Part shown: one piece after another, positions 3,367-62,902 of the stretch
Layout: each line of letters opens with the position of its first letter
How positions within the stretch are numbered: position 1 is the stretch's first letter
Virus record (IMG/VR): IMGVR_UViG_2744054452_000001
Coordinates: 1-64,000 of that record
Length of the DNA: 64,000 nucleotides
DNA from: a virus
Lineage: Duplodnaviria; Caudoviricetes
Reading direction: 5' to 3' (one strand)
The notes under the pieces: generated by a model
Database searches by the model: none
Seen by the model: only the letters and a program-made list of their open reading frames with translations
What the model was told of the DNA's origin: nothing
Program-made: the position numbers and the translations under genes

Positions 3367-3441
3367 TGGGTTTGCTCATAATTTGTTTCGACAGGGGGAA
3401 GTTTCCCCCTGGGTCTGTGGAACTCAGTTCTGACTTACATT

Positions 3442-18274: not shown

Positions 18275-18382
18275 TTGTGTTGGGTAAAAAAAAGGGGGCT
18301 AGACCGTGATGATCTGCCCCTGTCTATGGACAATTAAACCCAAAACCAGCCCCTAAGAGACTCAGTTCTGACTTAGATTGTA

Positions 18383-21029: not shown

Positions 21030-21150
21030 TTGTTCGCTGCCCCATTAAGAACGGTATTTAAGAGAGGGTTATATATAGGGGAAACGCGAAAATCGCTAAC
21101 AAAATTTTCGCTTTATGAAAAATCACCGGTAAGTTATTGAATTGAATAAT

Positions 21151-21186
21151 AAAAAAAGAACCCCGGAATGATGAATTCAGGGGTTC
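21151..21186 (-). terminator. intrinsic terminator after phoH
   Basis: GAACCCC...GGGGTTC stem with a U-run on the minus strand. Confidence 0.7.
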
Positions 21187-33203: not shown

Positions 33204-33261
33204 GTTTTTCTTCTTCTTATGTGGTTGGGCGCGGTAATTCTAAGTCAGTATTGACTTATCT

Positions 33262-39239: not shown

Positions 39240-39255
39240 GCTGTTCTTCTTCTAG

Positions 39256-41266: not shown

Positions 41267-41288
41267 TTCTTCTTCTAGTTCTTGCATT

Positions 41289-41984: not shown

Positions 41985-41987
41985 GTC

Positions 41988-42329
41988 TTAAACCTCGGGC
42001 AGCTGCTCAAAGGTGCCCGAGAGCGCGGAGATCGTGCCGTGATCGCGCGCACGTTTCCACGAGCGGCACAGGTAGACGCCGCTGACCTCATCGGGATTCA
42101 CCCAGATGAAGCCCTTGTAGCCTCCGTGCTCTCGCAGGAAGTCGTCAATCGCTTTGATCTCGGCCCGGGTGCCTGTGAATTTCAACTCCCAGGCTTCAAG
42201 GATCGGTGTAATGCTGTTTGGTGCGCGCTGTTCGTAACCGTCGCCCATCTTGGCGCTGCTTACGGATGGCTCAACGTTCAAGGACAGCGATGCGTCGGGG
42301 AACCACCCAAATGTTTTTCTTGTTGTCAT
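41988..42329 (-). CDS. minor tail protein M
   Basis: MGDGYEQR, FLREHGG..F.W, TFEQ. Confidence 0.92.
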   Translation of the reverse strand: MTTRKTFGWFPDASLSLNVEPSVSSAKMGDGYEQRAPNSITPILEAWELKFTGTRAEIKAIDDFLREHGGYKGFIWVNPDEVSGVYLCRSWKRARDHGTISALSGTFEQLPEV

Positions 42330-42383
42330 GGGGAATCCAGTGGCTTGTTTGCCACTGGATTCTAAGTCAGCACTGACTTAGCA

Positions 42384-45300: not shown

Positions 45301-46244
45301 ACGCCGATGGCTTCGCCCAGGCCACTGCCAAAATTGCGGCCAAACTCCCGGAATTCCGGGCTGGCCAGCATTGTCGTGAGCTCCTTGACCGCGGACTTCA
45401 TGGCATCGCCAAATCCAGAGTCGGCAATGTCCTTGCTTGCCAGCATCCACTGCGTCTTGAGCTGCGCTGTCATGCCGACCCAGGTGGTCATCATTTCAGC
45501 TGCGGCGCCGTCGTTTTGGACTTTCAGCTCGCGCATCATCGCGGCGATGGCAGTCTTGGCAACCAGCGTGCCCTTGGAGACCGCCTTAGTCAGCTCTGCC
45601 ATGGACATGCCGAGACCCGTGGCCATGGCCTGCATGGCATTCGGAATCGCTTCACCGAGCTGCTGGCGCAGTTCTTCCATCGAGACCACGCCCTTGCCCG
45701 CCATCTGGGAGATAGCCACGGATGCGCGCTTGAGCACTTCTGAGGTGCCCCCGAACCGGGCTACAGAGTCCACCAGGGTTTGAAGCGAGCCATTGGTCGG
45801 GTCGATGCCGGCGGTCTTGAGCTTCACGAATGAGTCAGACAGGGCAGAAATCTCAAATGGCGCACTCTTGGCCATCTGGGTGATGAAGTTGAAGTCCCGG
45901 ATGCCCTCGGCTGCCTTGGCCATCTTCTCTGTCTCTTTGGACAGACCAGCCATCAGCGCCTGCATGCGCTCCAACTCGCCCGCGTTCTTCATGATGTGCA
46001 TCGGCAGGCGGCCGAATGCGTCATACAGGTTCAGCAGGGCAAAACGCATCGTTCCAGTGACCAGTACGAAGTCACGGAAGCGATGCGTTACGGATTTGAT
46101 TGAGGTCTCAGCCTTCTTTGCAGCCGGTGATACCTGCTCAAACTCGCCCTTCATCTTTTTGAGCGAGTCAGTTACCTTTTGGGCGATGACCTTGTAGCCG
46201 TCATCATCCAGCTCAAGACGAATCTTGATGTCGGAATCTCCCAT
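42384..46244 (-). CDS. tape measure protein
   Basis: QMAGKGVVSMEELRQQLGE, long helical body, FADGG and YGEG..SEAYVPL. Confidence 0.93.
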   Translation of the reverse strand: MGDSDIKIRLELDDDGYKVIAQKVTDSLKKMKGEFEQVSPAAKKAETSIKSVTHRFRDFVLVTGTMRFALLNLYDAFGRLPMHIMKNAGELERMQALMAGLSKETEKMAKAAEGIRDFNFITQMAKSAPFEISALSDSFVKLKTAGIDPTNGSLQTLVDSVARFGGTSEVLKRASVAISQMAGKGVVSMEELRQQLGEAIPNAMQAMATGLGMSMAELTKAVSKGTLVAKTAIAAMMRELKVQNDGAAAEMMTTWVGMTAQLKTQWMLASKDIADSGFGDAMKSAVKELTTMLASPEFREFGRNFGSGLGEAIGVMKDLGKVIYDNAEYIKIAALAWAAYKVQTSLVGGAVGAVGSKFKELSQAAAESTRTIADNGKMNVARARDAANATLNEIAESKRAAVEKIAVVRNENATINQLQQQRMDSYSQMRATILAHDTRMANLQASLADATSKKQVNSINRQIGQLSNASREIDKMRLEAGKLSQTIVQQTQVMNTNDRTVGALVNTIQRAERATAAKTAALGRSIIALNAQTFAMKAATVAGNAFGSVLNAMGGWVGVAITAIGLLVAKWYDVKRAAEAAAQAQRRAADGHSTASERDAQGEQVDRLKKELEELKSDKVEIYDPASGQSITLNKDKKQLGDEKAVIEQKTAELNRAMKVYNQMVANISRDKAGDEVAFYMREQADQFVNEMQLSTKKRIDAVDQAAEAERKKFKDGSKEQAAALKKFTEQRYKISSEGYAQQAEHWKKQEDTLTAQLQKSTGQDAVNLQAKLDEVKKLGAQARELRDQMSATILPETLADDKAGKKKGNGPAVSAWEKLVSDVKGDRLRLDEELDNVLETGKKGISVADVINDLETKFKEGAFKKDKVTRSMLDGLIEQIKANAAKEQDIKDAQTMARKAEHAARYIESLAPEFEQAMEVISDPMGVSTSTQRMNSVAKQLLAHADLYEAYAKKTGQTFADVVANIKSQAATIDIANAMRNLVSETQQLSGRLTNETRIQRQERITGENDAHAREMQNLYDRVAAEGAAANQLAALQDAIFKNNRARALAMVDQVKPPLQKLAEEWGHFSDNLEQSTAGWAQTASDAFLEFATTGKSSIKDMVSSILKDLARLYTNKAFSVLIQMGMSAVGSWMSGGAGTGPLGSGSKVDYSLGSGSSGLGLKLPTTPFADGGIMTELGSVPLRKYAKGGIADSPQLALYGEGKYSEAYVPLPDGRSIPVTMSGGGQGIVNNIHITINDSGKESTTGSSAGGTNDAFARGLANRVKDVVREELMNQKRQGGILAS

Positions 46245-46298
46245 GACCTATCCTTGTTTTTCTTGTTATGTCGGACGGGCCACGGGAGCTAAGCTGGC

Positions 46299-46987
46299 CT
46301 AGATCATCATGGCCCGCAGTCGGGCAGAAGCGTCATGGTCGCGTTGGCTGTTGGCCATGATTACTGCCTTGGTAGAGCGCTTTACAGGCTCTGGTGCCTG
46401 TTCTTGCAGCCTTTCGGCAAGCGTCTTTGCAGACTCAGAGGACTGCGATGCAGAGAAGACCTGCAGATCCAGGAATGACCGGGCTGCACTGATGCGCTGG
46501 GTGAAGCCGGCCAGCTTCCAGAACGCGCGCATGGGCATGGCCATGGTGTTCTGGTAGGAGTGACCATAGGTGGCCATCACTTGCGCCAGCATGAAGCCCA
46601 GATCAATCGACTCGATCAGGTCTTCCGTGCCACTCAGTCCTTTTTTTTATCGGCGTCGGGCGATTTCAGGACTTCCTCATCCATGTCGCCACGGATGAAG
46701 CGCAGGATCGCGCTCATGGCGGGCAGCTGCAGGGAGCGCAGGTCTGCCTCGGGGAATTCGGGGATCGACTCCAGGATGTTCTTGATGGCCAGTTCAACCT
46801 GGGCGGACACAGCTTCGGGCTGCTTTTCCTTTGCGCCGCCCTGGGCTTCCAGATCCTCGGCGGCTTTCAGGTTGTCAATGAAGGCTTGAACGGACAGTTC
46901 CTTGACTTCGTAGTCGGTGCCCTTGAAGCGCAGCACGCGCTTGACTGTGGCGAATTCGTCAATGTTCAGGATTTTCGGTGCAGACAT
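46299..46987 (-). CDS. tail assembly chaperone GT-like, -1 frameshift product
   Basis: A AAA AAG slippery site at 46640-46646; the -1 frame reads GLSGTEDLIESIDLGFMLAQV, in frame with ORF 46299-46592. Confidence 0.8.
46634..46987 (-). CDS. tail assembly chaperone G-like
   Basis: Between the major tail and TMP genes; ends ...DKKKD. Confidence 0.85.
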   Translation of the reverse strand: MSAPKILNIDEFATVKRVLRFKGTDYEVKELSVQAFIDNLKAAEDLEAQGGAKEKQPEAVSAQVELAIKNILESIPEFPEADLRSLQLPAMSAILRFIRGDMDEEVLKSPDADKKKD

Positions 46988-47048
46988 TTTTTTCTTCTTA
47001 TTGAGCTGCTGGGCGGCACCCGGCTGGGGCCGCCCATGGGGTCACTGG

Positions 47049-47918
47049 TTATGCGCCAGCGGTTGCGGCCATGTCGCCCAGGGCGAACAGCTTGCCGTCA
47101 TTGGTGGGGTAGCCGGTGAAGTTGGCGTTGAACACACGCTCACTGTCGATCTGGTAGGCGAAGGACAGCTCACCGGGAGCGGCAGCGCGGTAGATGGTGA
47201 AGTCTTCCGATGTGTCGCTGTCGGGCTTGTTGATGGGGTGCAGGCGCAGTTCGCCGGCGAAATCCAGCAAGTCCAGGCCGGCGCCAGTCTGCACGTCCAG
47301 GCGCATCTTGGTCGGGGCAATGCCGCCGGCCAGGGTCGCACCAGATGCGGTTGCCTTGGAGCTGGTCGAGGACAGCTCGACAGCATTCGCTTCGGAGCCG
47401 TAGTCAATGGCGGTGATGACCACCTTGGTAGTGCCTTCGCGCACCGACTGCACGCCGCCGTAGGTGCCGGCCGCGCCGGAGCGGTTGATCGCGGTCACGG
47501 TCTTGTTCAGCGTTTCGGTCAGGTCGGCGCCGATGTTGATCTGGTTGACGGATGCGACAGGGGTATTTGCCGCCACGAACGTGAACGTCTGGCCGCCCAG
47601 CTTGAAGGTATCTGCGGGTGCAGGCTGGCCGGTGAACGTCAGAGTGCCAGTTGCGCGCTTGCCATCGGTCACGATGGTGGAGCCAGGCATCAGGGCACCC
47701 ATGTTTTCAATGGTCGATTCGGCCATGGGCACTGTTGCGGTCACGGTACGGCCCTGCACCAGTTCCTTGATGGGGGTCTTACCGTATTGGTCAACCTCCA
47801 CCTTGTAGGTTTCGGTGGACACCGAAACCTCAACGCCGCCCTTGGTCAAGCCCAGGTCACGGCCCTTGAAGTAGCCGCGGCAAACGCCCAGCTTCACGTT
47901 TTCGGTCTTAGAAGCCAT
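47049..47918 (-). CDS. major tail tube protein
   Basis: DLGLTKGGVEV...VEVDQYG; position in the tail operon. Confidence 0.85.
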   Translation of the reverse strand: MASKTENVKLGVCRGYFKGRDLGLTKGGVEVSVSTETYKVEVDQYGKTPIKELVQGRTVTATVPMAESTIENMGALMPGSTIVTDGKRATGTLTFTGQPAPADTFKLGGQTFTFVAANTPVASVNQINIGADLTETLNKTVTAINRSGAAGTYGGVQSVREGTTKVVITAIDYGSEANAVELSSTSSKATASGATLAGGIAPTKMRLDVQTGAGLDLLDFAGELRLHPINKPDSDTSEDFTIYRAAAPGELSFAYQIDSERVFNANFTGYPTNDGKLFALGDMAATAGA

Positions 47919-48011
47919 TGCTCTATTTCCCTCTATTCTTATTCTTATGGGTAAGTCAGGACTGACTTAGCTATGTATTCTAAGCAGAGTCAGTCGGTGT
48001 GGCAACACCCT

Positions 48012-48443
48012 CTATGGGGCGATGTAGTTGAGCTCGACTTCCATTTCAAACTCGTTGAAACCTCCGTCAGAGCTTTTGTAGGGGGTCGGTTCATTGACCA
48101 CCCGGATGCCCCGCAGCAGTACGGACGTGCCGGCGCCGAGCAATTCGTCCAGGTGCTTGCCACTGATGACACGCTCCAAGCTGTCGGTCGCAAGACGCTC
48201 CAGCTGCCTTGCCAGGCGATAGCCACGCGAGTACGGCGCAGAGCGCACCACCATTCGCAGGCCACCGAAGCGCAGCAGCGGGATGTACGGGTCGATCGGC
48301 GTCCCCTCGGGGTACGAGTCCATCAGCAGCACCCCGTGCTTGCACTGCAGGGGCATTTCGTTGATGAACACCTGGCCAAGGTCGAGGTCTGGGTGCGCGC
48401 GCGCGATCTCCATCAGGAAATCTGCCACAAGTTCCATCTTCAT
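48012..48443 (-). CDS. putative tail terminator
   Basis: Position and size. Confidence 0.6.
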   Translation of the reverse strand: MKMELVADFLMEIARAHPDLDLGQVFINEMPLQCKHGVLLMDSYPEGTPIDPYIPLLRFGGLRMVVRSAPYSRGYRLARQLERLATDSLERVISGKHLDELLGAGTSVLLRGIRVVNEPTPYKSSDGGFNEFEMEVELNYIAP

Positions 48444-48958
48444 CGGGTTTTCCTCTTGCGGGTTCTGCTACGCGCCGTCTGGGTTGCGGGGCGGTATGCA
48501 TTCTTGAGCTGTACGAATGCCGCTGGCTTGCCGCGGGCGACTGCTTGCAGCTCTTCTTTCAGTAGCAAGGTTCCCTCACGGACAGCACGCGCAAAGAACT
48601 TCCGGCCGACCTTGTTACCGGCCATGGCCTTCTTGCGTGAACCAGGGCCGAGGTTGTACTTGCCCTGCTCCATCAGCTTCGCGTACTCGCTCAGCGAGCC
48701 ACTGCGCTTGCCGACGCGCTTCGCGTCACCGTCGATATAGACCAGGTAGGCGTTGCGCCTGCGCGCGTCCTTGAGCGTCACATATTCGATGTTCTTCTCC
48801 AGCACGCCGGTCTTGACCGGGGCGTAGCTGCGCGCCAGGTCGCGGATCATCTGGGCACGGCGACGCATTACGTCACTCATGCCCTTCATGGCCTTCTCGC
48901 CAGTCTGGGTGATCCTTGACTCAATGCTGCGCACATCGAAGTCGATCTTCATCCCCAT
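48440..48958 (-). CDS. HK97 gp10-like tail completion protein
   Basis: APVKTGVL, YAKLMEQG, KFFARAV. Confidence 0.8.
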   Translation of the reverse strand: MGMKIDFDVRSIESRITQTGEKAMKGMSDVMRRRAQMIRDLARSYAPVKTGVLEKNIEYVTLKDARRRNAYLVYIDGDAKRVGKRSGSLSEYAKLMEQGKYNLGPGSRKKAMAGNKVGRKFFARAVREGTLLLKEELQAVARGKPAAFVQLKNAYRPATQTARSRTRKRKTR

Positions 48959-49317
48959 TGCTCAGGCACCTTCTGATCGCACGTCAGTTCATAGTGGTCA
49001 AGAATGCCGCGCACGTTGAAGCGCGGCTCCCGGCCGATGACGCGAACCTTTGTTTCCAGCATGCCGATCACATCGTCAATGCGTACAACGCTCAGCGGCG
49101 GCACCAGGATGCGGATCTCGGCAACCTCTTCCTCGGCATGGCCACGGGTGCCCGACGAGTCGGTACGCACCGTGGTTGCCATGGATTTGAAGCGCAGGCG
49201 CACCGGGGCGCACCTCTCCTTGACGGGACGCTCGGCATAGATCGGTTCAGAGTAAGCACTAACGCCCAACTTCTTGAACACGTCAATTCGCATGGTCGTG
49301 TACAGGAGTGATGCCAT
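48949..49317 (-). CDS. putative head-tail adaptor/stopper
   Basis: ATG 49317; position; ...LDHYEL. Confidence 0.65.
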   Translation of the reverse strand: MASLLYTTMRIDVFKKLGVSAYSEPIYAERPVKERCAPVRLRFKSMATTVRTDSSGTRGHAEEEVAEIRILVPPLSVVRIDDVIGMLETKVRVIGREPRFNVRGILDHYELTCDQKVPEQWG

Positions 49318-49319
49318 GG

Positions 49320-50189
49320 TCAGCCCCTGTTCAACCGAACGGAAAAGTCCAGCCAGCGACCCAGCGCCTGCGTTGCCTTCTTCGACGCAACACCCAGCGA
49401 AGACTCCAGCGTCTTTGCGGCGCCAAAGAACTGGCTCGACTCGCCCACGGTCATCGAGATCAGGCCATCCCGACGTGCCTGGCGAACAGGATCGTCCGTG
49501 ATTGCCTCTGCCGCCTCGTAAATCTGGGCGCGAATCATCGCCGCCAGAAAGTCGGGGTCGAGGGCTGCAACCTCTGCGCGTTGCTCGGGCGTAATGGACG
49601 CCAGACGCTTGCCATGGTGCTTGCATTGGGCGCGCACCACCAGCGGCAGGGACATGATGGCAAGGAACGCATCGCTCATCGCCACATTGCGCTCATGCCG
49701 ATCCATGGCGAGCAGGTCTCCTGTGACCTGGATCGGGTAGTCGAGCATTTCCATCTGCATCGCGTCGTCAGCAAGGATGCCCGTCACCCAGGGCTTCATC
49801 ATGCTGCCGCTGATCGAAACCAGCTGCCGGGTGTTGTGCAGGTTGCCAGAAACGTCTTCGATGGACACAACCAGCGCAATGCCCTCGCTTTTACCGCTTT
49901 CGGGCTGGCGCAGCGAGGTCAGTGTTCCGTCGAGAATGACGAGCAGGCTATCTACGGCGGCAGTTGGGTCATACGGGGTTGAGGTGCTGTCGTCTTGGTC
50001 TTCGCGGTCGATGGTCAAGACATGGCGGTCAACCGTGGCATCAAGCTCACGCTCGCGCACCAGGACGGCCCCATCCAGGCCGACCACAGACACCATTACG
50101 GCCGTTGGCAGGACACGGGCGCCATTGGTGTCAACGATGGGCACCTGCACGCCCAGGCGTGCCCCAGGATCGGTACGGATTGGGGCCAT
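49320..50189 (-). CDS. putative head-tail connector
   Basis: AQIYEA...GLISMTVGESS; position after the capsid genes. Confidence 0.65.
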   Translation of the reverse strand: MAPIRTDPGARLGVQVPIVDTNGARVLPTAVMVSVVGLDGAVLVRERELDATVDRHVLTIDREDQDDSTSTPYDPTAAVDSLLVILDGTLTSLRQPESGKSEGIALVVSIEDVSGNLHNTRQLVSISGSMMKPWVTGILADDAMQMEMLDYPIQVTGDLLAMDRHERNVAMSDAFLAIMSLPLVVRAQCKHHGKRLASITPEQRAEVAALDPDFLAAMIRAQIYEAAEAITDDPVRQARRDGLISMTVGESSQFFGAAKTLESSLGVASKKATQALGRWLDFSVRLNRG

Positions 50190-50192
50190 GGC

Positions 50193-50591
50193 TTAGTTCT
50201 GCGCGGCCAGGATGCCGGTGATCAGATCCGTGATCGACTTGCCGCTCACGCCCAGAGGTGCGGCAATTTCACGCACGCCCTTGATGCCGCTCTTGTCGGC
50301 CACTGCCTCCAGTGCATCGCGCGTCCAGGCCTCGCCGGCGGCAGGCTTCTCGTCCACAGTCACCAGGGGCTCCGGCGCGGGCGCGGCGGCAGCGCTCTTG
50401 AGCGTCACAACGGCGGGCTCGTTGGTGTCGGTGATCTCGTCGCCATGCTGTTCGACGCGCAGCAGAGCCTGCATGCGCTTGAACTCAATATCGCTGACGG
50501 GACTTGCAGAAATGCCGTCCTTGAAAGCGATGATGCCGAAGTAGCCCGAGAAGCCTTCGTAGCCAGCTTCTGTGATTTTCAGGTGTTTCAT
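50193..50591 (-). CDS. head-associated protein with HeH-like C-terminus
   Basis: GIKGVREIAAPLGVSGKSITDLI. Confidence 0.65.
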   Translation of the reverse strand: MKHLKITEAGYEGFSGYFGIIAFKDGISASPVSDIEFKRMQALLRVEQHGDEITDTNEPAVVTLKSAAAAPAPEPLVTVDEKPAAGEAWTRDALEAVADKSGIKGVREIAAPLGVSGKSITDLITGILAAQN

Positions 50592-50601
50592 TCTTGGTTC
50601 C

Positions 50602-50644
50602 TAAACAAAAAAGACGGGGCCGAGGTTCCACCACAGCTCCCGCC
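50602..50644 (-). terminator. putative terminator after the capsid gene
   Basis: GGCGGGAGC...GCCCCGTC stem followed by U6. Confidence 0.55.
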
Positions 50645-50681
50645 TTGCAAATAAGTCAGTCAGAACTGACTTATATCACGC

Positions 50682-51587
50682 TTACACGTTGGTCACACCA
50701 GCCAGGCGAGCCAGCGACTTGGTGGATTTCAGTGCCAGGCCGCAGTACCACTTCAAGCGGGTGCGGATCGCATCCTTGTTCTGCACGGTGCCGATGGTTT
50801 CCACGCGAATACCGGCAGAGGCACCGCCGTACAGGCCGTGCAGACCATCCAGCTCGTTCGCACGCACGGCGTACACCGAGCAGGTCGAGCTGTTGGAGCC
50901 CATCAGTTCATCACCGGGCATGAAGTCGTTGATGATGATGGGGCAGCCGTTGTGCGCCAGCACGGGCACGTCGAAGTTGGGATGCTGGATCATCGCGCCG
51001 GTGTTGCCGCCGGCAGCACGCAGCTGGGCCACGTAGGCACGACGGGTGCCGGAGCGCATCATCAGGAAGTCGGGGCCGCCGTTGGGCACGGAGTCCACCA
51101 GGTGATCCAGTGCGCTCAGGGTCAGCGCACCGCCATCCACGCCTGCCTCGATGGTCTGCTCGGCAGTGACCAGGGCTTTCAGGCCGTCGAATTCCTTTTC
51201 GTTCACGGACGAATCGCCGTTGACCACCGACTTCTGGAAGGCACGGGCCATCGACTTGGCTTTCAGTGCGATCTGCACGCCCAGCTGGTCTTCGGTGTCG
51301 GACATGGTTTCGGCCATGAACTTGTCCACGTCCACGTCACCGATCAGGATGCGCAGCTTGGTGGTGACTTCCTTGAAGGTCGAAGCGTTTTCGGGCACCA
51401 CTTCGTTCACGTCCAGGTAATCCACCGTTGCCAGCGTACCCTCGCGCTTGTACAGGTATGCCTTGCCGCTCACCTTGGTGAAGGGCAGCATGTTGTACAT
51501 CTCGTTCGTGGTGAAAATTTCTTCCACGATGCCCTGGACAACTTGATCCTGGGACAGCTTTTCAGCTTCTACTTTCAGCAGAGGCAT
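50682..51587 (-). CDS. major capsid protein
   Basis: GGAG RBS, ATG 51587; EFDGL motif, ends ARLAGV. Confidence 0.9.
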   Translation of the reverse strand: MPLLKVEAEKLSQDQVVQGIVEEIFTTNEMYNMLPFTKVSGKAYLYKREGTLATVDYLDVNEVVPENASTFKEVTTKLRILIGDVDVDKFMAETMSDTEDQLGVQIALKAKSMARAFQKSVVNGDSSVNEKEFDGLKALVTAEQTIEAGVDGGALTLSALDHLVDSVPNGGPDFLMMRSGTRRAYVAQLRAAGGNTGAMIQHPNFDVPVLAHNGCPIIINDFMPGDELMGSNSSTCSVYAVRANELDGLHGLYGGASAGIRVETIGTVQNKDAIRTRLKWYCGLALKSTKSLARLAGVTNV

Positions 51588-51701
51588 GTTTTCTCCGTTC
51601 TTCTTCTTGTTATAGGAGTGAGTAAGTTCTGACTTACTTATTTTATGAACACAGTTGCCATTTTGCAAGCGGCCAGATGCAAATACTGACCGCCATGCAA
51701 A

Positions 51702-52613
51702 TTAAGCAGCTGCCGCGGCCATGCGCAGGCCGGCACTAATGCGCTCGGCGGGTGTCATGGCGCGCTTTGTCGCCTCTGCCGCGATGCCCTTGCGGGCCGC
51801 GAGGGACGTATTGGCAGGGGCACTGCCGGCGCCAGGCTTTGCGTTGGAGCGCAGCATCTGGTCGCGTTCGGGGTCAGGGTCGGCCTTGACCAGCTGAATC
51901 AGAGCATCGTTGAAGGACAGGGGCTCGCCGCTGGAGTCAACCAGCTGCGTGCGTTCGGCGCTGCCACGGGGCTTGTCAAAGCCAACAACCTTGCCGTCGA
52001 CAAAGTCGAAGTGCTCGCCGTAGACCTTGCGTGCCTTTGCGCGGGTCATCAGCAGCATTTCGCCAATCACGGGGGACGTGGCGAAGGCGTTGCCCACGGT
52101 CAGCTCACTGATCTGCTGCTGCAGACTGCCGATTTCGCTACGCAGTGTTTCGCGCTCAGAAACCGTGGATTCCATTTCTTCCTTGTGACGCTGCGCCATT
52201 TGCTGCGTCAGGCGGTCGTACTCGCCACGGGCTTCCAGCTGCTTGCGCTCCAGCTCAGCCTGCTCGGCCTTCCATGCCTTGTAGGCTTCCACGTCAACGC
52301 CGTCAAACTGCGCCAACTTGCCCTGCAGTTCGGAGATCTGGCCCTGCAGCTGATTGGCGCGGCCCTTGTGCTTCATCACATCGCGCAGCAGGCCGGCTTC
52401 GGAGTCGGTCGGCTTTTTGGATCCATCGCCCTCTTCGGCGGTCTTGGTGCCGGCGGGGTCATCGCCTTCGCCATCACCTTCGTCCGATTCGGCCTTGCCC
52501 GGGGTGTTGCCCTCTTGGGCAGCGGCACCCGTGCCACCGGTATCAGAGCCGCCCTCACCGGCAGCATCCATCAGCTTGTGCAGCTTGAGCAGTTTTTGCA
52601 AACGCAGATTCAT
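51702..52613 (-). CDS. capsid scaffolding protein
   Basis: Acidic N-terminus, coiled coil; between portal and capsid genes. Confidence 0.8.
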   Translation of the reverse strand: MNLRLQKLLKLHKLMDAAGEGGSDTGGTGAAAQEGNTPGKAESDEGDGEGDDPAGTKTAEEGDGSKKPTDSEAGLLRDVMKHKGRANQLQGQISELQGKLAQFDGVDVEAYKAWKAEQAELERKQLEARGEYDRLTQQMAQRHKEEMESTVSERETLRSEIGSLQQQISELTVGNAFATSPVIGEMLLMTRAKARKVYGEHFDFVDGKVVGFDKPRGSAERTQLVDSSGEPLSFNDALIQLVKADPDPERDQMLRSNAKPGAGSAPANTSLAARKGIAAEATKRAMTPAERISAGLRMAAAAA

Positions 52614-52685: not shown

Positions 52686-54275
52686 TCAGGAGGCAACCAT
52701 TTCCTTGGCTGTCTTCTGGGTCGCGGCAGCCCTCACGGGGTCGCCGCCTTTGTTCGCGTTGCTGTCGCCGCCCTTCTCCGTACCAGGCAGCGATCCGGTG
52801 GCCTTGGCCATCTTCTGCGCCTGCTCGATTGGGTCGGGCGGCCACTTCTTGATCGCTGCCTCGATCACCTTGCGGTCGGACTTGCTCATTGCAGGGAAGA
52901 GCTTTTCGACCACCTGGAGCATTTGCTTGCGACGCACCTCGTCAGGCGCGGCCAGCAGGGACAGGCGGGCACCGATCTCAAACTCGTCATACAGGCTGCG
53001 CGTGTCGAACTTCTTGGGATACGCCAGCAGCTCGGCAACATCGGCGGGCACGGTCTCTTGGCCCTTCCAAAGCATGACGAGAGCCAGGATTCGGATCTCA
53101 GTTTGTTCAAGCGATGCGGATTTCGCCGCCAGCAGCGAGTTAACGCGCTCAAAGTCGTAGGCTTTGGCAACGCCAGAGCTGTTATCGACACCACCGCCGT
53201 TGTCATCCTTGGTGCGCTCTGCACTCAGGCCAACGGAGTGGTAAATCTCATTGATGATCTTGCCGACCGCCGCCAGGATCATGCTTGCCTGGCGCGGGTC
53301 GGGACTGATGAATTCGGGCTTCTGGCCAGCCTCGCCGTTGTAGGTGAAGATGCGCTTCGTGCCGGCCTCAACCAGCTTTTGGTGCATGTCATCACCCGGC
53401 ATCAGACCCTGGGCAGGCATGGTGAGCTGCGAGAAGGTCTGGTCTTGAATGATGGCGTCGAGGTTGCTCAGGTAGTTCGCGTTGGCGCGATCCAGGTAGG
53501 CAATGTCATCAATCAGACCCTGGGTCTCGTACAGCTCTTCGCTCAGTACGTGGTCTGCTTGCACGACTGGCACGACGCCAAGATCGTGCTTGCCCTGGGC
53601 CAGCATTGCGTAGCGTGATCGGCGCAGGTGACGACCGTAGCGCTCTTCCCCGATCAGGAACCACGAATCGCGCGTCCAAAGACGGAAGCGCTCAAGATAT
53701 TTGCCCGTGGCATTCAGGGGGTCGGCGTCGTCGCGCACCATTTCCCGAAACAGAATCCAGTTCAGACGCCCCATTTCGTCATAGGACATATCGAGGGCAT
53801 CTTGCGGCTTGACGATGTAGGCGTAGACGCGGGCGCCCTGCTTTTTCTCGTCGGCCTTGCTCACTGCCTCATCGTCTTGCGCTGTGAGTGTGCTGTCCAC
53901 CACCACCCAGACACGGCCAAACTTGCTCGTGGAGTTGCTGATCCGGCGGGAGAAGTTGTCCATGTTCAGGCCGGAGAGCGTCGCATTCTTCCAGAACGCG
54001 GCAATTTCCTCGGGCGCATCTTCACTGCGGTGAATTGGCTGCTTGAACAGGTACTTGTCGATCAGGTCAACGACCTGGCGTGTGTGATTGAAGCGATACG
54101 CGCGCTTTACGCGGCCAGCGTATTCCTCGTCGCCTTCCTTGAGGTAACGAAAAATGTTGTCCTTGAACCATGCACGGCCGCCCTCATAGGTAGCTTCCAG
54201 GAAGTTCCAATGCGGGAGATTTTCGTTATAGAGGGGGTGCCGCCGATCAATCAGCGAGGTCAAGGTGTCGGTCAT
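52686..54275 (-). CDS. portal protein
   Basis: RHPLY...YEGG; downstream of terL; start at 54275 or 54308. Confidence 0.87.
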   Translation of the reverse strand: MTDTLTSLIDRRHPLYNENLPHWNFLEATYEGGRAWFKDNIFRYLKEGDEEYAGRVKRAYRFNHTRQVVDLIDKYLFKQPIHRSEDAPEEIAAFWKNATLSGLNMDNFSRRISNSTSKFGRVWVVVDSTLTAQDDEAVSKADEKKQGARVYAYIVKPQDALDMSYDEMGRLNWILFREMVRDDADPLNATGKYLERFRLWTRDSWFLIGEERYGRHLRRSRYAMLAQGKHDLGVVPVVQADHVLSEELYETQGLIDDIAYLDRANANYLSNLDAIIQDQTFSQLTMPAQGLMPGDDMHQKLVEAGTKRIFTYNGEAGQKPEFISPDPRQASMILAAVGKIINEIYHSVGLSAERTKDDNGGGVDNSSGVAKAYDFERVNSLLAAKSASLEQTEIRILALVMLWKGQETVPADVAELLAYPKKFDTRSLYDEFEIGARLSLLAAPDEVRRKQMLQVVEKLFPAMSKSDRKVIEAAIKKWPPDPIEQAQKMAKATGSLPGTEKGGDSNANKGGDPVRAAATQKTAKEMVAS

Positions 54276-54454
54276 TGCGTTTGTTTTTATTGTTTTCGCA
54301 GATGCCATAGTAAGTCATTACTGACTTACAAGCAAGCAAAGAGCGGGGCACGGGCTGGGAACATCCCCAGGCGAGAAGGGAGGAAAGATCTAAAAACTTC
54401 CCGCCTACCCGTGCCCTGTCTCATGGCTTGCGGCGAGTATAACTCAGTTCTGAC

Positions 54455-55762
54455 TTATACCGAAACACCCAAAATTTCCACCTTGCGCACAGGGAATTCG
54501 TACTCGATGCAGTAGCCGGCCGCGTCAGCCGCGTGTTCGACACCTGCAGTCTTGTCAACTTCGCGGCTGTGGGGCTTGTACAGCGTCTGCTCAAGCGCCT
54601 CGATCAGCTTCTTGCATCGTGGGTCAACGTACATGCGAACCGCACCGCTTGCGCTCTTGAGCATGCGGTTGACGGAATTCACGCGGTCAGCGACTGGCGG
54701 GTGCTTCTTACGGTATTTCTGGCGCTTGAACCCGCGCTCACGGAACACGTCCAGGTCAGACTCCCCGCGCTGGTGCCCACGGTACGCGCCGGCGGGGTCG
54801 GGATAGATCGTGATCTGGTTGATGAAACGCCAGTACCGGCGCTCGATCTCGTCGCACAGCTCTTCGGTGTTGGAGCTCGGCAAGCAGATTTCATCGACGG
54901 CCCACAGCTCCTTGGTGCGCGGCTGGTACTGGAACACCACGGAACTCATGGGGTCGATGTTGAAGTCCTGCCCGATCCACAATGGCAGGTCGGGGTTGAA
55001 CGCCAGGCTCTTAACGTGCGTTTTTCGGTCGAATGCGTGATACACGCGGCCGCTCATGGTCTCGAATGACGCCTCAAACTCCTGCTTGAAGCTCTTTTCG
55101 TCCATGTCCTCACGAGCCGCCTGCAGTTCCTCCAACGGGATGAACGGCGAGGTGATCGTGGGGAACTGCCAGCTCATCCAGTCGCGCAGACCCTTCTTGC
55201 CCAGCGCGTAAAGCTCATGCAGGAAGTTGTACGCCTTGGGCGTGCCGATGAACAGGGCATGGCCGCCGGTGGATGCCAGCGTTGGGCGCAGCACCTTCTT
55301 CCAGGCCTCGGGGTCAATATCCTGCACCTCGTCCATGACAAGGTAATGGATCCCCACGCCGCGCAGCGAGTCGGGATTGTCCGCGCCCTTGAGCTCGATG
55401 CGCGTGCCATTGACCAACGTGATCGCCAGGATCGTTTCGTTGTACTTTTTGACCCACCCGCGCGGGATGGCCTCGACCAGCTCAGGCCACATGATCTGCT
55501 TGGCCATGCGGTAGGAAGGGGCGACGTACCAGACCAGGCGCTTTTTCTTGCGGGCGAACTTGATAAGGCTGGTCTTGGCCAGCTGGGTCTTGCCCCAGCG
55601 CCGGCCGGCGACCACCACCTTGAAGCGGTAAGGCGCGCTGTAGACCTCCATCTGCTTCTTGTGCAGAAAGAGCGTGTTTTCAGGAGGGCGGAACGACTCG
55701 CGGATCTCGTCGGTTGCTTCGGAGACCGCTGCTGCTACCGCCGTGGGCACGAGAAGGGTCAT
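54455..55762 (-). CDS. terL: terminase large subunit
   Basis: AGRRWGKT, VMDE, IGTPK, GQDFN, HAADAAGY. Confidence 0.96.
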   Translation of the reverse strand: MTLLVPTAVAAAVSEATDEIRESFRPPENTLFLHKKQMEVYSAPYRFKVVVAGRRWGKTQLAKTSLIKFARKKKRLVWYVAPSYRMAKQIMWPELVEAIPRGWVKKYNETILAITLVNGTRIELKGADNPDSLRGVGIHYLVMDEVQDIDPEAWKKVLRPTLASTGGHALFIGTPKAYNFLHELYALGKKGLRDWMSWQFPTITSPFIPLEELQAAREDMDEKSFKQEFEASFETMSGRVYHAFDRKTHVKSLAFNPDLPLWIGQDFNIDPMSSVVFQYQPRTKELWAVDEICLPSSNTEELCDEIERRYWRFINQITIYPDPAGAYRGHQRGESDLDVFRERGFKRQKYRKKHPPVADRVNSVNRMLKSASGAVRMYVDPRCKKLIEALEQTLYKPHSREVDKTAGVEHAADAAGYCIEYEFPVRKVEILGVSV

Positions 55763-56388
55763 TCCAGACTCCCCAGCTCGTCCAGACCATCGGTCTCGCC
55801 CGCACCCATGTCGTCGGTTTCAGGAACTGCGTCGCGCAGCTGCTCGACTTCGCCCTGGGTCAGCTCGCGCACGGTCAAATCTGGCAGGTCGTCAATGTCC
55901 TCCATTGCCTCCATCTTTGGCACGTTCAGGAGGTCATAGGCTTCCTTGCGTGTGATGGCCAGCACCTCGGCAGCCATCTTGTAGACGGCCATCGACTTGC
56001 GCAGCGTCCCAACGTCCACGCCGGCGGCGCGGGACTTGTGAATGTCCTGAAACGCCATCTGTGCCAGCATCTGCGACATGCTGTAGTGGCGCTCTTTGAC
56101 GGACTTAATGCGCTTGAGTGTTTCGTCCAGCTCGCTCCTGACGACCTCTTCGACCGCTTCTGCCACGGCCTTCGTCGCCGCGGTGCTGGCAACGTCCTCG
56201 ACACTGGTGCCCTTGGAGATACCCATCTTGGCGAACAGGCGCGAGAAGGTCTCGGGGCGCTTGCCGAACTTCTTGGACAGATCAGCGAGGGTTACGGTGC
56301 CCGAAGTCCACAGTGCCGCTGCCTCTGCGCGCTGGCGGGGTGTCAGGTTGCCCCGAATCACCTTTTCCTTCTTGGTCTCTTCGCTCAT
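55759..56388 (-). CDS. terS: terminase small subunit
   Basis: N-terminal HTH; coupled to terL. Confidence 0.8.
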   Translation of the reverse strand: MSEETKKEKVIRGNLTPRQRAEAAALWTSGTVTLADLSKKFGKRPETFSRLFAKMGISKGTSVEDVASTAATKAVAEAVEEVVRSELDETLKRIKSVKERHYSMSQMLAQMAFQDIHKSRAAGVDVGTLRKSMAVYKMAAEVLAITRKEAYDLLNVPKMEAMEDIDDLPDLTVRELTQGEVEQLRDAVPETDDMGAGETDGLDELGSLE

Positions 56389-56561
56389 GCGCCCACCCCT
56401 TGCGCATGGCCTTCACCCTCTTCCGTTTGGGCAAAAAAAAGGGCGGGTACTAAGCCCGCCTGTACTCCAAACTCGTCTGAGGTGTAGTGAGCGGAATTAT
56501 AGCATCCAAATTCAGTCAGTTCTGACTTATTTTTTGGAATGCCGGTAGATGCATGGCTCAT
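56385..56561 (-). CDS. 58-aa putative leader ORF coupled to terS
   Basis: (AAN)6 tract before ATG 56561; its TGA overlaps the terS ATG. Confidence 0.5.
   Translation of the reverse strand: MSHASTGIPKNKSELTEFGCYNSAHYTSDEFGVQAGLVPALFFAQTEEGEGHAQGVGA
56433..56460 (-). terminator. intrinsic terminator upstream of terS
   Basis: GGCGGG-CTTAGTA-CCCGCC-C-T8. Confidence 0.8.
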
Positions 56562-56685
56562 GTTTTCTTCTTCTTCTTGTTGGCCAGGGGCTCCGGGTCT
56601 GTGTCGGCCCGGGAACCTCAAAAACACCTTACCCCCCATCTAAAAGGTATTCAGAGAACCTTATTAATAGGGGAAACCGAAAAAC

Positions 56686-56852
56686 CGCTAACAATTGTTA
56701 GCGCTATTCTTTTTATAGCAAAAATAGCTCCCGGCAGTGAATATTTTTCTTTTCAAAATCAACGGTTTACAGCAAATCGCTAACAATTGTTAGCGCTATC
56801 GTTTCTGTAGCGCTAACAATTGTTAGCGCTACTGTTTTGGTAGCACTAACAA
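56686..56852. repeat. three perfect palindromes CGCTAACAATTGTTAGCG plus a half copy
   Basis: 56686-56703, 56778-56795, 56811-56828, half copy near 56841. Confidence 0.9.
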
Positions 56853-56855
56853 ACC

Positions 56856-57212
56856 TCAGTCCTCCAGTACGAACTCACCCGGCTCGACGGTGATTTCCGG
56901 CACTTCGTCTTCCAGTTCTGGGATGGGCACCGAGGCGGAAAGAGGACGAGGATCGTAGAAAGCCAGACCACCCGGAGCGAGCCCGAATGTCTGACGCATG
57001 CGGCCCCTTCGCTGGGCAACCCCCAATTTCACGATCAGCCCCTTGGTGGCCATGGCGCGGATCGTGAACTGCAGGGATGCCTTGCTGGCGGACTCGGTGA
57101 GATCAAGGATCTCGTCCAGGTCGGGATCGCCGCGCTCACGGATGAAGTCCATGATTTTTCGCTGCATGGCGGAAGGCGCCCTCTTCTTGACGGGCTTGCG
57201 TGCGACTGTCAT
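56856..57212 (-). CDS. winged-helix DNA-binding protein
   Basis: QRKIMDFI...LDEILD...SKASLQFTIRAMATKGLIVK. Confidence 0.75.
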   Translation of the reverse strand: MTVARKPVKKRAPSAMQRKIMDFIRERGDPDLDEILDLTESASKASLQFTIRAMATKGLIVKLGVAQRRGRMRQTFGLAPGGLAFYDPRPLSASVPIPELEDEVPEITVEPGEFVLED

Positions 57213-60414: not shown

Positions 60415-61092
60415 TTACTCCAGCCCCAGGTTGGACTTCGCGGCGTTGGCCACCTCCACCAGGGCCATGCCGGCGGCAACCAGGCTGTCTTCTTCCTTGT
60501 CGAAGCCACGGGCAACGATGAGCTTCTTGATGAGCTTTTCGACCGCCTCGCGGTCTTGGACGGGCACCTTGAAGCGCATCAGCTCGGTCAGCTTGACCGG
60601 GCGCTCGGCGGGTGCAGGAGTCACGTCATCCAGCGGGTCAACGTCAGCATCGAAGCCGATCTTCGACAGGTCGATCTCGTCAACGGCCTTGAACATGCCG
60701 GCCAGCTCGTCCTCCGTGTACGGCAGCATGGCAGCAACGTCTTCCATGCCAATGTCCTGCAGCACGGAGTTCAGGCGGGTCACGTCATCAATGCCGTAGC
60801 CGCCGTTGTCAGCAAGGCCGATCAGCTTGGCCTGCTTGTCATCAATCTTGCCCAGGCAGATGACAGGCACTTGCTCATGGCCGAGGTCTTTTGCGGCCCG
60901 CCAGCGGTGCTCACCACCTAGAATCTGAAAAGTGCCGTCATCCAGCTCACGCACGATGATCGGCTTGTAAAAATTGAGTTGCTTGAGCGAATTGCGCAAG
61001 CGCCCCTCCATTTCAGGAGAGACAACATTGGAGTTCCATGGGTTCGGGCGCAGGTGCCCCGTTGGAACGTAGATGATTTTCAGTTGATCCAC
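60415..61092 (-). CDS. ParB/Srx N-terminal domain protein
   Basis: LRPNPWNSN, KPIIVR, GGEHRWRAA. Confidence 0.88.
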   Translation of the reverse strand: MDQLKIIYVPTGHLRPNPWNSNVVSPEMEGRLRNSLKQLNFYKPIIVRELDDGTFQILGGEHRWRAAKDLGHEQVPVICLGKIDDKQAKLIGLADNGGYGIDDVTRLNSVLQDIGMEDVAAMLPYTEDELAGMFKAVDEIDLSKIGFDADVDPLDDVTPAPAERPVKLTELMRFKVPVQDREAVEKLIKKLIVARGFDKEEDSLVAAGMALVEVANAAKSNLGLE

Positions 61093-61112
61093 GATAATCG
61101 GGCCAATAAATG

Positions 61113-61130
61113 TAAGTCAGAACTGACTTA
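61113..61130. promoter_or_regulatory. perfect 18-bp palindrome TAAGTCAGAACTGACTTA (one of about 20 copies)
   Basis: Lies in the divergent parB/helicase gap; other copies are listed under findings. Confidence 0.85.
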
Positions 61131-61162
61131 CTTTAACTGCAAAGGCATACATAGGCAAGAAG

Positions 61163-62902
61163 ATGGTTCAGATTGGATATAACGCGGTTCACGCACAGGT
61201 TTTTGGCGCCACGACGGAGGAAAAGGTCGAGATCCACCGGCTGCTGAGCGTCGATGTGGAGAATTCGACAGGCAACACGCTGATTGGCCTCGACAGCTCG
61301 CGCTGGACTGGCCAGACGAGCTTTTTCAGCTTCGACAAGGGCACTTTCCCCGCCGGATTCGTTCATTTGGTCACGCAGGGGCTGCAGAAGTTCGGCAGCC
61401 AGGTGCGTGTGCAGCGCCCCGCCCTGCCCGAGCCCCTGGGGCCAGAGTTTCCCGAGGTCGATGAATTCGGCTACACCCCGCGCTATGACTATCAGCCCCG
61501 AGCGGTCGAGCAGCTGGTGCGCCATGGCCAGATCACCGTTCAGGTGGCGACCGGCGGCGGCAAATCACGCATCGCCCGGATGGCGCTCAAGCGCATCGAC
61601 CGGCGCTCTCTGTTCCTGACCACCAGGGGCATCCTGATGCACCAGATGCAGCGCGAGATCGAAAAGATGGAGGGCGAGTGCGCAATCCTGGGCGACGGAG
61701 AATGGGGCATCCCCTACACGAAGCCTGACGGTACAGAGGGCCGCCGACTGAGCAAGTTCTGCGTGGGCATGGTGCAGACGCTGGCGCAGCGCCTGGAGCC
61801 CAAGACCGTCAAATGGGAGCTGCAGGCGACGCTCGACCGCAACATGACTGCCCTCAAGAAGAAGGTGCAGGAATACAAGGCGCAGCTTGAAAAAGAAGGC
61901 ATCAAGGGTCTGGAGCGCGCGAATCGCCTGGTCGCTTTTGAGGACGACCTGAAATCCAAGCTCCCTACCGAGGATGACCTGCGCCCCGAGATCGAGATAA
62001 AGGTCGAGCGTCACGAGAAGATGCGCCTGGCGACCCAGAAGATGCTGGCCAAGTTTGAGCTGGTGATCGTTGAAGAGGCACACGAGGTCAGCTCAAACAG
62101 CTTCTACGCGGTGATGGAGTGCTGTACCGGCGCCTACTACCGCATGGCGGTCACTGCAACGCCCTTCATGCGCGAGGACGAGGCTGCAAACATGCGCTTG
62201 ATGGCAGCGTGCGGCCCGGTAGCCATTCAAATTTCGGAGCAGACCCTGATCGAGCGCGGCATTCTCGCCCGCCCCTTTTTCAAGATTCTGCAGGTGCCTG
62301 CGGATAAGAAGCCCGCCCTACTGACTCGCAGCACCCCATGGCAGCGCGCATACACCCTGGGCATCGTTGAGCACGAGTACCGCAACAAGATGATCGCCGC
62401 CGAGCTGATTATGGCCAAGCGCTTCGGTCTGAACGCGATGGTGCTGGTGCAGCACAAGACACACGGCAGAATCCTCAAGGAGCTGCTGACCAAGTACGGA
62501 CTGCGCTGCGAATTCATCTTCGGTGAGGACAACCAGAAAGCCCGCGACAAGGCGATCAAGAAGCTGGCCACCGGAGAGATTGACGTGCTGATCGGCTCCA
62601 CCATCCTTGACGTGGGTGTGGACGTGCCCAGCGTGGGCCTGATCGTGCTCGCCGGCGGCGGCAAGGCGGAGGTGGCGACACGCCAGCGCATCGGCCGCGG
62701 CCTGCGCGAAAAGAAGGGCAAACAGGCAGACGGCTCTCCCATGCCCAACTTCGCCTTCATCGTGGACGTGAACGACGACGCGAACAACTACCTGCAGGAT
62801 CACGCCCTGCAGCGCCTGCTCATCATCCAGAAAACACCGGGCTTTGCCGAGAACATCGTCAAGCAGTTTGACTACGAAGCCCTGGGATTCAATCGCATTT
62901 AA
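61163..62902 (+). CDS. SF2 DNA helicase
   Basis: YQ, ATGGGKS, VEEAH, TATP, DVGVDVP, QRIGRGLR. Confidence 0.93.
   Translation: MVQIGYNAVHAQVFGATTEEKVEIHRLLSVDVENSTGNTLIGLDSSRWTGQTSFFSFDKGTFPAGFVHLVTQGLQKFGSQVRVQRPALPEPLGPEFPEVDEFGYTPRYDYQPRAVEQLVRHGQITVQVATGGGKSRIARMALKRIDRRSLFLTTRGILMHQMQREIEKMEGECAILGDGEWGIPYTKPDGTEGRRLSKFCVGMVQTLAQRLEPKTVKWELQATLDRNMTALKKKVQEYKAQLEKEGIKGLERANRLVAFEDDLKSKLPTEDDLRPEIEIKVERHEKMRLATQKMLAKFELVIVEEAHEVSSNSFYAVMECCTGAYYRMAVTATPFMREDEAANMRLMAACGPVAIQISEQTLIERGILARPFFKILQVPADKKPALLTRSTPWQRAYTLGIVEHEYRNKMIAAELIMAKRFGLNAMVLVQHKTHGRILKELLTKYGLRCEFIFGEDNQKARDKAIKKLATGEIDVLIGSTILDVGVDVPSVGLIVLAGGGKAEVATRQRIGRGLREKKGKQADGSPMPNFAFIVDVNDDANNYLQDHALQRLLIIQKTPGFAENIVKQFDYEALGFNRI

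Follow-up and report, generated by a model that had tools for sequence, protein, structure and literature searches.

The leader of terS, the gene that heads the packaging and virion block of a phage of the Caudoviricetes, was analysed in a stretch of 64,000 nucleotides (nt), here called the window, which is the first 64 kb of the 80.5-kb IMG/VR record IMGVR_UViG_2744054452_000001 (CheckV completeness 71%). This leader carries an open reading frame (ORF) that runs through an operator-like palindrome, a predicted nested promoter and an intrinsic terminator, and that stops on the start codon of terS. The same anatomy, including the open frame and the overlap between stop and start, is conserved in relatives. 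The layout, kept by many related phages, probably decides which transcripts reach the packaging genes. As a tentative proposal, we favour a composite gate in which translated transcripts that start upstream would pass the terminator as in the Escherichia coli pyrBI attenuator, with the ribosome reinitiating at terS.

According to this proposal, the 470-bp region ahead of terS would consist of two tandem promoters and one terminator. The nested promoter (P-in), with an operator over its -35 region, would start downstream of the leader ATG, so that its RNA of approximately 57 nt, ending at the terminator, would be untranslated. Upstream transcripts, from a putative promoter P-up (near 56660) or from read-through of the preceding operon, would carry the leader ORF together with a tract of AAN triplets. 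A ribosome on the leader would trail the RNA polymerase over the hairpin, 121-199 nt after the start codon, the hairpin would be hindered and transcription would continue. On reaching the UGA, which shares bases with the AUG of terS, the ribosome would stop and then reinitiate at terS. The terminator would thus act as a filter that blocks the transcripts of the nested promoter and passes the translated ones initiated upstream.

Overlapping signals in the terS leader

The leader region (ORF, AAN tract and terminator) and the surrounding genes are all on the minus strand. The leader ORF extends from an ATG at 56561-56559 to a TGA at 56387-56385 (58 codons), and its frame is open back to an ATG at 56639, which gives 84 codons; the T-run of the terminator is reached 121 nt after the first of these start codons or 199 nt after the second. 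Before its TGA the ORF crosses the operator palindrome, the nested promoter, the hairpin and the T8 run, and the TGA has two bases in common with the ATG of terS at 56388-56386 (ATGA). The terS gene (phrog_867) occupies 55759-56388. The terminator (56433-56460) lies inside the leader ORF and is formed by a stem at 56460-56442 with 6 G-C pairs and a 7-nt loop, followed by T8 to position 56433, with a hairpin energy of approximately -11 kcal/mol (-10.8). No other terminator was found from the upstream operon (from about 61092) up to terS, and a promoter scan gave no promoter-like site between this one and terS. A preliminary description of this DNA had reported a 58-codon ORF, a strong intrinsic terminator at 56433-56460 and a leader stop overlapping the terS ATG, and all three were confirmed on the minus strand, the ORF at 56561-56385.

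The leader ATG is preceded by an (AAN)6 tract of six triplets (56564-56581), which ends 2 nt 5' of it. There are 12 tracts of at least four AAN triplets on the minus strand of the window, ten of which lie 0-21 nt ahead of an ATG, including those of late genes starting at 33203, 46987 and 46244, and the bias between strands is strong (22 overlapping starts on the minus strand versus 1 on the plus strand). The AAN tract is likely the usual non-Shine-Dalgarno initiation region of this phage, including for the leader ORF. The leader tract had been described as the longest upstream one; it is present, as the usual signal before an ATG, and it ties for longest of the 12. Tracts of (AAN)4-6 are also seen directly 5' of late-gene starts, in the place of a Shine-Dalgarno sequence, at 33218-33204, 47002-46988, 51611-51597 and 46267-46253. 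These tracts fit the (ARN)n pattern of Hfq distal-face sites.

Between the palindrome and the terminator there is an extended -10 element (TGCTATAAT, 56496-56504, minus strand), with a predicted transcription start near 56489. The motif TGNTATAAT occurs once in the 64 kb (56496-56504, minus strand) versus 0.25 expected, and it is the sole perfect extended -10 in the window. This element and the upstream promoter-like box of P-up had both been overlooked in the preliminary description. In most relatives, the left half of the palindrome is followed at the same position by TTGACA, 17 nt and TAnnnT, a promoter that scores 9 of 12 or better in 22 of the 37 rows, and the -10 of P-in is homologous in position to the -10 of this promoter. 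The spacer between -35 and -10 is 9 nt shorter in the window, where the palindrome is centred near -31 relative to the predicted nested start site, versus about -41 in relatives; the extended -10 may compensate for the shortened spacer. The nested -35 is decayed in the window and in its nearest relative, L006 (promoter scores of 8 and 7 of 12), and L064 looks alike by eye, yet the terminator and the ORF persist in all three. P-in is most readily read from these motifs as a nested sigma-70 promoter whose position is conserved in relatives.

The predicted untranslated transcript of P-in (56433-56489, minus strand, about 57 nt) has a 5' part containing CACCTC (56484-56479), followed by the terminator hairpin and a U-tail, and its fold has a minimum free energy of -14.7 (z -1.7). 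In relatives, the predicted length ranges from 47 to 72 nt. The attempt to obtain a consensus structure with RNAalifold, on a MAFFT alignment of 22 short transcripts, gave none, the stems differing in sequence and not being structurally aligned, and because of this single-sequence folds were used. In 29 short transcripts folded in this way the 5' segment is mostly unpaired and is followed by the terminator hairpin, which is the sole common element. No alternative antiterminator hairpin was seen in the single-sequence folds of the 29 short transcripts and the window.

A second conserved element of this short transcript is a CTCC/CCTC box 12-50 nt 5' of the T-run, which is found in 33 of 34 sequences versus 16% of background windows and which is kept also in leaders that have no leader ORF. 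The frame in which the box is read varies from relative to relative (Ser-Pro-Pro, Leu-Leu-Leu, His-Leu-Gln and others), and it is therefore conserved at the level of the nucleic acid. Its CCUCC core resembles the anti-Shine-Dalgarno sequence. The window has a weaker form of the box (CACCTC), part of which is predicted to be paired. In relatives L006-L083 the CU-rich box, of the TCTCCTCC or ATCACCTCC type, stands 2-8 nt 5' of the hairpin, and in the window it stands at 56479-56484. Pairing of the box with the Shine-Dalgarno sequence of terS or with the AAN tract of the leader was considered by eye; it is good in L051 and L007 singly and inconsistent overall. In L010 and L011 the complement of the box is a strong Shine-Dalgarno sequence with an ATG 5 nt on, which opens antisense ORFs of 17-19 codons that other lineages do not have. 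Rfam gave no match at the gathering score in the whole window, and a relaxed threshold gave chance miRNA-like matches on the TTAGC palindromes alone.

Terminator and leader frame in related phages

A set of 47 IMG/VR relatives was collected by terL, and terS was found in 40 of them, giving 35 distinct leaders in addition to that of the window. Judged by terL DNA, the named phages closest to this one are siphoviruses of about 100-120 kb, of the Rhizobium RHEph10-like, Pseudomonas nickie-like and SSU5-like types. In metagenomes, a scan based on terS found no relative and a second scan gave 26 loci. Nine of these repeat IMG/VR sequences (by eye) and were not recounted, L081 was left out as too short, and L070, L071, L073, L078 and L079, with no terS match, were left out of the leader counts. 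L082 has no terS match either; its terL match starts 290 nt into the locus, and terS was probably cut off.

Of the 36 distinct leaders, 33 have a terminator with a T-run no more than 90 nt from terS, the exceptions being L025, L037 and L048. Such a terminator is also present in phage nickie, while RHEph10 has no clear terminator, SSU5 has a hairpin only, with no continuous T-run, and the metagenome loci L061 and L074 have none. The stem sequences differ between lineages and the hairpin is kept. In the relatives, a G+C-rich hairpin with a run of 5-9 T lies 25-45 nt past the nested promoter, and terS follows 11-29 nt further on in most of them, compared with 44 nt past the terminator in the window.

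An ORF that spans this unit, with its ATG upstream of the nested -35 and its stop at -2 to +8 of the terS start, is found in 24 of the 34 terminator-bearing leaders (the 33 and nickie). Of these, L028 was counted only after moving the terS start to a GTG 11 nt past the T-run, and L019 uses another frame. All seven further distinct metagenome leaders with a terminator (L058, identical to L080; L059; L062, with a GTG start; L063; L064; L067; L077) have the spanning frame as well, with stops at -5 to +1. In total, a spanning ORF that stops at -5 to +8 of the terS start is present in 31 of 41 distinct terminator-bearing leaders. Across these leaders the ORF is 126-255 nt long and its start codon stands 77-232 nt ahead of the T-run. 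Three kinds of overlap between stop and start are seen (TGATG, ATGA/GTGA and ATGnnTGA), and these track the frame; in L008 the frame is fused to terS. The leader peptides are alike only where the promoter or terminator DNA is alike. It had been suggested that conservation of frame and hairpin, rather than of peptide sequence, would be the check in relatives, and the 31 of 41 leaders with a spanning ORF and no conserved peptide give a positive answer.

The retention of the frame was also evaluated in the segment from the palindrome to terS. There, 25 of 34 sequences have no stop in the frame of the ORF, compared with 6 of 34 for the third frame, 1 of 34 for the one that a -35 and -10 consensus would close, and 24 of 102 for frames of the reverse strand. 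Mapped on a tree of terL, the ORF is found in five or six clades; the outlying lineages (L040, L044, nickie) do not have it, nor do some others. Among the 13 sequences with a terL at least 79% identical to that of the window, the spanning frame is present in 10 of the 10 that bear a terminator, and the other 3 have no terminator. Hairpins are stronger where the ORF is present (median -16.2 kcal/mol, n = 24, versus -11.25 kcal/mol, n = 8; p 0.0035, uncorrected for phylogeny). The context of the start codon is purine-rich in most of the relatives' leader ORFs (by reading). The ribosome-binding region of terS lies 11-29 nt from the T-run in relatives and often has a weak Shine-Dalgarno sequence (by reading), and comparison by eye gave no clear difference in its strength where a leader ORF exists. 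The sequence evidence that the leader frame is kept and tied to the terS start is good but not overwhelming.

Operator-like family, putative upstream promoter and gene context

The palindrome in the leader (56512-56529) is an imperfect 18-bp one, with a perfect core AGTCAG-AA-CTGACT (56527-56514) and 7 of 8 outer pairs holding; an inverted-repeat search on it gave 12-nt arms with 83% complementarity. With up to 3 mismatches, the core has 41 strand-sites in the window versus 4.0 expected, a number reached by none of 100 shuffles. Allowing up to 2 mismatches in the arms gives 23 sites, mostly intergenic, several of which have the same degenerate downstream half on the coding strand. In the whole records of five relatives, AAGTCA-N4-TGACTT with up to 1 mismatch occurs 10, 20, 13, 2 and 0 times, versus 0-1 for the reversed-pattern control. 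A promoter scan of 33000-52000 gave five sites, all on the minus strand, four of which overlap or abut a palindrome. The palindrome lies exactly in the 17-nt promoter spacer at 42387 and 33265, and just 3' of the -10, over the predicted start site, at 48005 and 51668. The idea that it forms a hairpin in the leader RNA was rejected, given the approximately 20 copies placed in promoter spacers or at start sites. Four copies share the right-arm change CTGAGT, which is uncompensated and would be a G-G mismatch in RNA, and the identical change in four copies argues for a protein-binding DNA site and not for an RNA hairpin. The family looks like the operators of a global phage regulator, and the variable geometry between palindrome and promoter points to a repressor as the binder. 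The 18-bp palindrome of the preliminary description is thus present, in imperfect form, and it is better seen as a dispersed DNA operator by the nested promoter than as a leader RNA switch.

The late block that follows terS holds at least four further promoter-like sites overlapping or abutting operators, and a terminator at 50612. One start codon therefore cannot gate all 34 kb, and the claim that control of the leader start codon could gate the late block of roughly that size is too strong.

The approximately 20 sites of the form (TA)AGTCAG-N2-CTGACT(TA) are mostly intergenic and oriented, and include those at 3422, 18360, 20333, 22070, 24594, 33243, 42365 and 47954, with further ones at 50658, 51621, 54313, 54442, 56514, 58640 and 61115. 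The last of these is a perfect copy (61115-61128) in the divergent intergenic stretch 61093-61162. This stretch, flanked by a ParB-like gene on the minus strand (60415-61092) and a helicase gene on the plus strand (61163-62902; Helicase_C, ResIII), is probably a divergent operator-controlled promoter region. A palindrome followed by a strong terminator within 46-67 nt is also seen at 50612-50671, after the 328-aa gene 50682-51668, and at 18293-18373, after the gene 18383-19819 (both minus strand); the arrangement is that found ahead of terS, in both cases with no spanning ORF. As a pattern in its own right, a palindrome with a terminator within 80 nt (3 cases) was set aside, being by estimate not clearly above expectation when both are restricted to intergenic DNA.

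The putative promoter P-up (56661-56691, minus strand) consists of TTAGCG at 56691-56686 and a T/A-rich -10-like box at 56669-56661, separated by a 16-nt spacer whose last bases are TTTCCCC. Its -35-like TTAGCG is supplied by the promoter-proximal one of three 20-bp palindromes of the GCGCTAACAATTGTTAGCGC type (56685-56704, 56777-56796 and 56810-56829), which are operator-like and have 3 matches versus 0.01 expected. A second copy of P-up, 76% identical, lies at about 21080 on the minus strand, just past a terminator at 21157 and ahead of the gene 20346-21029. By eye, a similar C-run and TATATA box is seen in 17 of 17 upstream regions of relatives and in 10 of 20 in a further leader set. From these motifs we infer that P-up is a second, upstream promoter. 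The stretches 21040-21102 and 56640-56700 (both minus strand) have in common GTTAGCG, 16 nt ending in TTTCCCC, a TAT(A/T)(A/T)ATA box and CTCT..AATACC, and part of the sequence downstream of P-up (TCTGAATAC) is also found near the end of the SSU5 genome (L056 20-32). The ATGGGG that follows P-up was considered as a shared start codon and rejected for the second copy, where the annotated gene (21029) begins further on, with an ATG that is in a different frame.

The gene at 56856-57212 (minus strand), which immediately precedes the regulatory region, encodes a winged-helix protein of 118 aa (phrog_900, PHROG E value 8e-6). A homologue was found by tblastn in 41 loci, and the gene lies upstream of the terS leader in all 37 with a mapped terS start. 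The AlphaFold2 (AF2) model has a mean predicted local distance difference test (pLDDT) score of 83, and the top Foldseek matches are regulators of the MarR/PadR/MecI type, at a weak E value of about 3e-3. The protein is a candidate regulator and a candidate for binding the dispersed palindromes; its Q-F..R and RR(G)R core is invariant and its C-terminal tail is acidic. One relative, however, retains the gene in a record with no palindrome of the AGTCA-N4-TGACT type at up to 1 mismatch, so the protein may bind something else.

Downstream of terS follow terL (54455-55762, minus strand) and the portal gene (52686-54308, minus strand), and the virion block holds three very large ORFs of 2347, 1788 and 1286 aa (26160-33203, 33873-39239 and 42384-46244, minus strand). 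PHROG and Pfam scans of approximately 30 ORFs in 57-80 kb of the record gave ParB-like proteins, ABC-type ATPases, a thioredoxin, a helicase and a phosphoesterase, and no recognisable antiterminator, sigma factor or repressor.

Readings of the terS leader and comparison with known systems

Intrinsic terminators inside or just past an ORF are known to be suppressed by a ribosome that closely follows the polymerase. According to two published accounts (PMC4824070; PMC5021804), ribosomes reach the polymerase after roughly 100-200 nt, the pyrBI attenuator acting in a 135-bp leader. The distances of 77-232 nt from start codon to T-run correspond to this range and are near the length of the pyrBI leader. 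Several points weigh against passage of the terminator by leader translation. According to one of these accounts, the pyrBI terminator, with its 135-bp leader, is unsuppressed in normal conditions (PMC4824070), so suppression in the terS leader would need tight coupling, and no pause signal, consistent stall motif or regulatory codon run was found in the translated leaders. Ten of the 41 leaders keep the promoter and the terminator without a separate ORF, outlying lineages included (L013, L014, L032, L035, L036, L040, L041, L044, nickie and the fused L008), and therefore translation cannot be the family-wide way past the terminator and the promoter-terminator unit is older. The ancestral way past the terminator was probably something other than leader translation. 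In addition, open frames of approximately 38 codons are not rare in this DNA, the lineages are not independent and the statistics are moderate; the hairpin of the window is among the weakest of the ORF-bearing set; the conserved CU-rich box has no explanation in a model of leader translation; and P-up rests on motif conservation, the consensus promoter scan giving it no score. A wider reading, in which a small-RNA gene with an operator-controlled promoter, a CU-rich anti-Shine-Dalgarno-like seed and a terminator is nested in a translated leader and only polymerases from the upstream late promoter, being followed by a ribosome, reach the packaging genes, seems doubtful to us. It would amount to a switch between RNA and terminase that depends on the choice of promoter and on how accessible the start site at the AAN tract is, a tract that resembles an (ARN)n Hfq site. 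One segment of 200 bp would then simultaneously encode a peptide frame, a promoter, an operator, a regulatory RNA and a terminator.

The ten leaders that have promoter and terminator and no separate ORF favour an antitermination factor as yet unrecognised, and this explanation, which we consider unlikely though well worth weighing, would make P-in the real late promoter, as in the lambdoid PR'-tR' arrangement, with a phage protein or RNA rendering the polymerase resistant to the terminator. The leader ORF would then only bring ribosomes to terS or keep upstream transcripts free of polarity. A near-consensus promoter, a terminator 25-45 nt on and then terS are the most widely kept part of the region, and this unit is present in nickie as in the ORF-less lineages; the conserved palindrome abuts the -35, the CU-rich box by the hairpin could bind a factor, and the conserved DNA-binding gene directly upstream has the position that Q has in lambda. 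The preliminary description had also offered Q-like antitermination as an alternative, and as a known Q protein it found no support in the five records searched, that of the window and four that are 94-100% complete: families PF06530 and PF03589 matched none of them, with positive controls, and PF06323 matched none either, although its control was silent. The record of the window is 71% complete, and a factor gene could be missing from it. The upstream protein, however, folds as an ordinary winged-helix regulator, a -10-like pause element (TAnnnT, at -2 to +25 of the predicted starts) is found in only 2 of 34 sequences, and the palindrome changes position among the other promoters, which fits a repressor better than a loading site. 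The decay of the nested -35 in the window and L006, where terminator and ORF are still there, likewise speaks against P-in as the late promoter.

The promoter, the terminator, the mostly unpaired 5' segment of the 29 folds and the CU-rich box, with its anti-Shine-Dalgarno-like core, would also suit a small RNA of 47-72 nt that acts in trans, for instance on Shine-Dalgarno-like sequences, its place in the terS leader being secondary and terS being expressed by leakage. The reading of the box in different frames and its excess over background are what conservation of RNA or DNA would give. Nonetheless, this explanation, though a serious rival, is rather improbable: no target was found among the cis candidates inspected by eye (the ribosome-binding regions of terS and of the leader), with which pairing is inconsistent between relatives, no Rfam family matched, the box of the window is weak and partly paired, and a small RNA alone leaves unexplained why the ORF is retained and always ends at the terS start. 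Slightly less probable still is a constitutive attenuator or insulator, in which the terminator would end the transcripts of the upstream operon and of the nested promoter and terminase would be made at a low, fixed and unregulated level. The absence of any other terminator found between the upstream operon and terS, the weak and leaky hairpins of the ORF-less lineages (-7.5 to -13.6, except nickie) and the internal promoters of the late block agree with it, while a strong promoter right before a terminator, conserved down to about 25% identity of terS, would be odd for low expression, and the conserved open frame and the overlap of stop and start would have no explanation. Very improbable, finally, is a chance and untranslated frame in GC-rich sequence constrained by motifs. 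At least one reverse-strand open frame is present in the same segment in 19 of 34 sequences, and one and the same frame is eliminated by the -35 and by the -10 consensus, so that two are available; the frame of the ORF is nonetheless open in 25 of 34 sequences versus 6 of 34 for the other available frame, the stops cluster at the terS start in 31 sequences with three different overlaps, and the start codon has an AAN tract in the window and a purine-rich context in most relatives.

The control of late genes is known in detail for few types of phage, such as the lambdoid Q, the activators of P2 and Mu and the sigma factor of T4. Phages and phage-plasmids of the SSU5/nickie type, of approximately 110 kb, are widespread among the bacteria of soil, plants and the gut. 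A search of full-text literature, supplementary files excluded, gave no paper on this region or on late control in SSU5/nickie-like phages. If leader translation lets the polymerase pass the terminator, this would be a phage use of coupling of the pyrBI type, with ORF, operator, promoter, short RNA and terminator overlaid in one stretch. Through the dispersed operator and the winged-helix gene, the lysis-lysogeny circuit of these phages becomes open to study.

From its sequence, the layout of the terS leader appears related to known kinds of control, namely ribosome-mediated attenuation and terminator gates close to a promoter. The classical leader-peptide attenuators of the trp, his and leu type also place a short leader ORF and a terminator before an operon; they differ from the terS leaders, in which the folds gave no antiterminator hairpin, there is no regulatory codon run and the ORF runs through the terminator. 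In the late gate of lambdoid phages, the promoter PR' gives a short terminated 6S transcript that ends at tR' unless the antiterminator Q acts. The likeness to it lies in a strong promoter right before a terminator that heads the late and packaging genes, giving a short dead-end RNA by default, in a DNA site that adjoins the promoter and in a regulator gene just upstream. Here, in contrast, no Q-family protein was found in the five records and the pause element is rare, an ORF spans the unit, there is a second putative promoter upstream and the DNA site belongs to a dispersed family of approximately 20 copies. In this last respect the phage resembles P1, whose C1 is the master repressor of a plasmid prophage with dispersed operators: many copies are scattered over a genome of about 100 kb and overlap promoters at varying positions, and the relatives belong to the SSU5/nickie group, which is discussed in published work as one of phage-plasmids. 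The site here, unlike that of C1, is a symmetric 5-4-5/6-2-6 palindrome, and its repressor function is suggested by its position only.

In the E. coli pyrBI attenuator, reportedly described by Roland et al. in 1988 (cited in PMC4824070), the ribosome suppresses an intrinsic terminator that lies within a leader ORF. Unlike pyrBI, the terS leaders show no UTP-sensitive pause run or other coupling signal, their ORF contains a promoter and an operator and its stop overlaps the next start codon, and the genes controlled are those of phage packaging and not of a biosynthetic operon. The leader ORFs are of similar size (126-255 nt here versus 135 bp), and each crosses the hairpin and ends shortly ahead of the structural gene. 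What would prevent termination in either case is a ribosome that closely follows the polymerase, which for the terS leader is a proposal.

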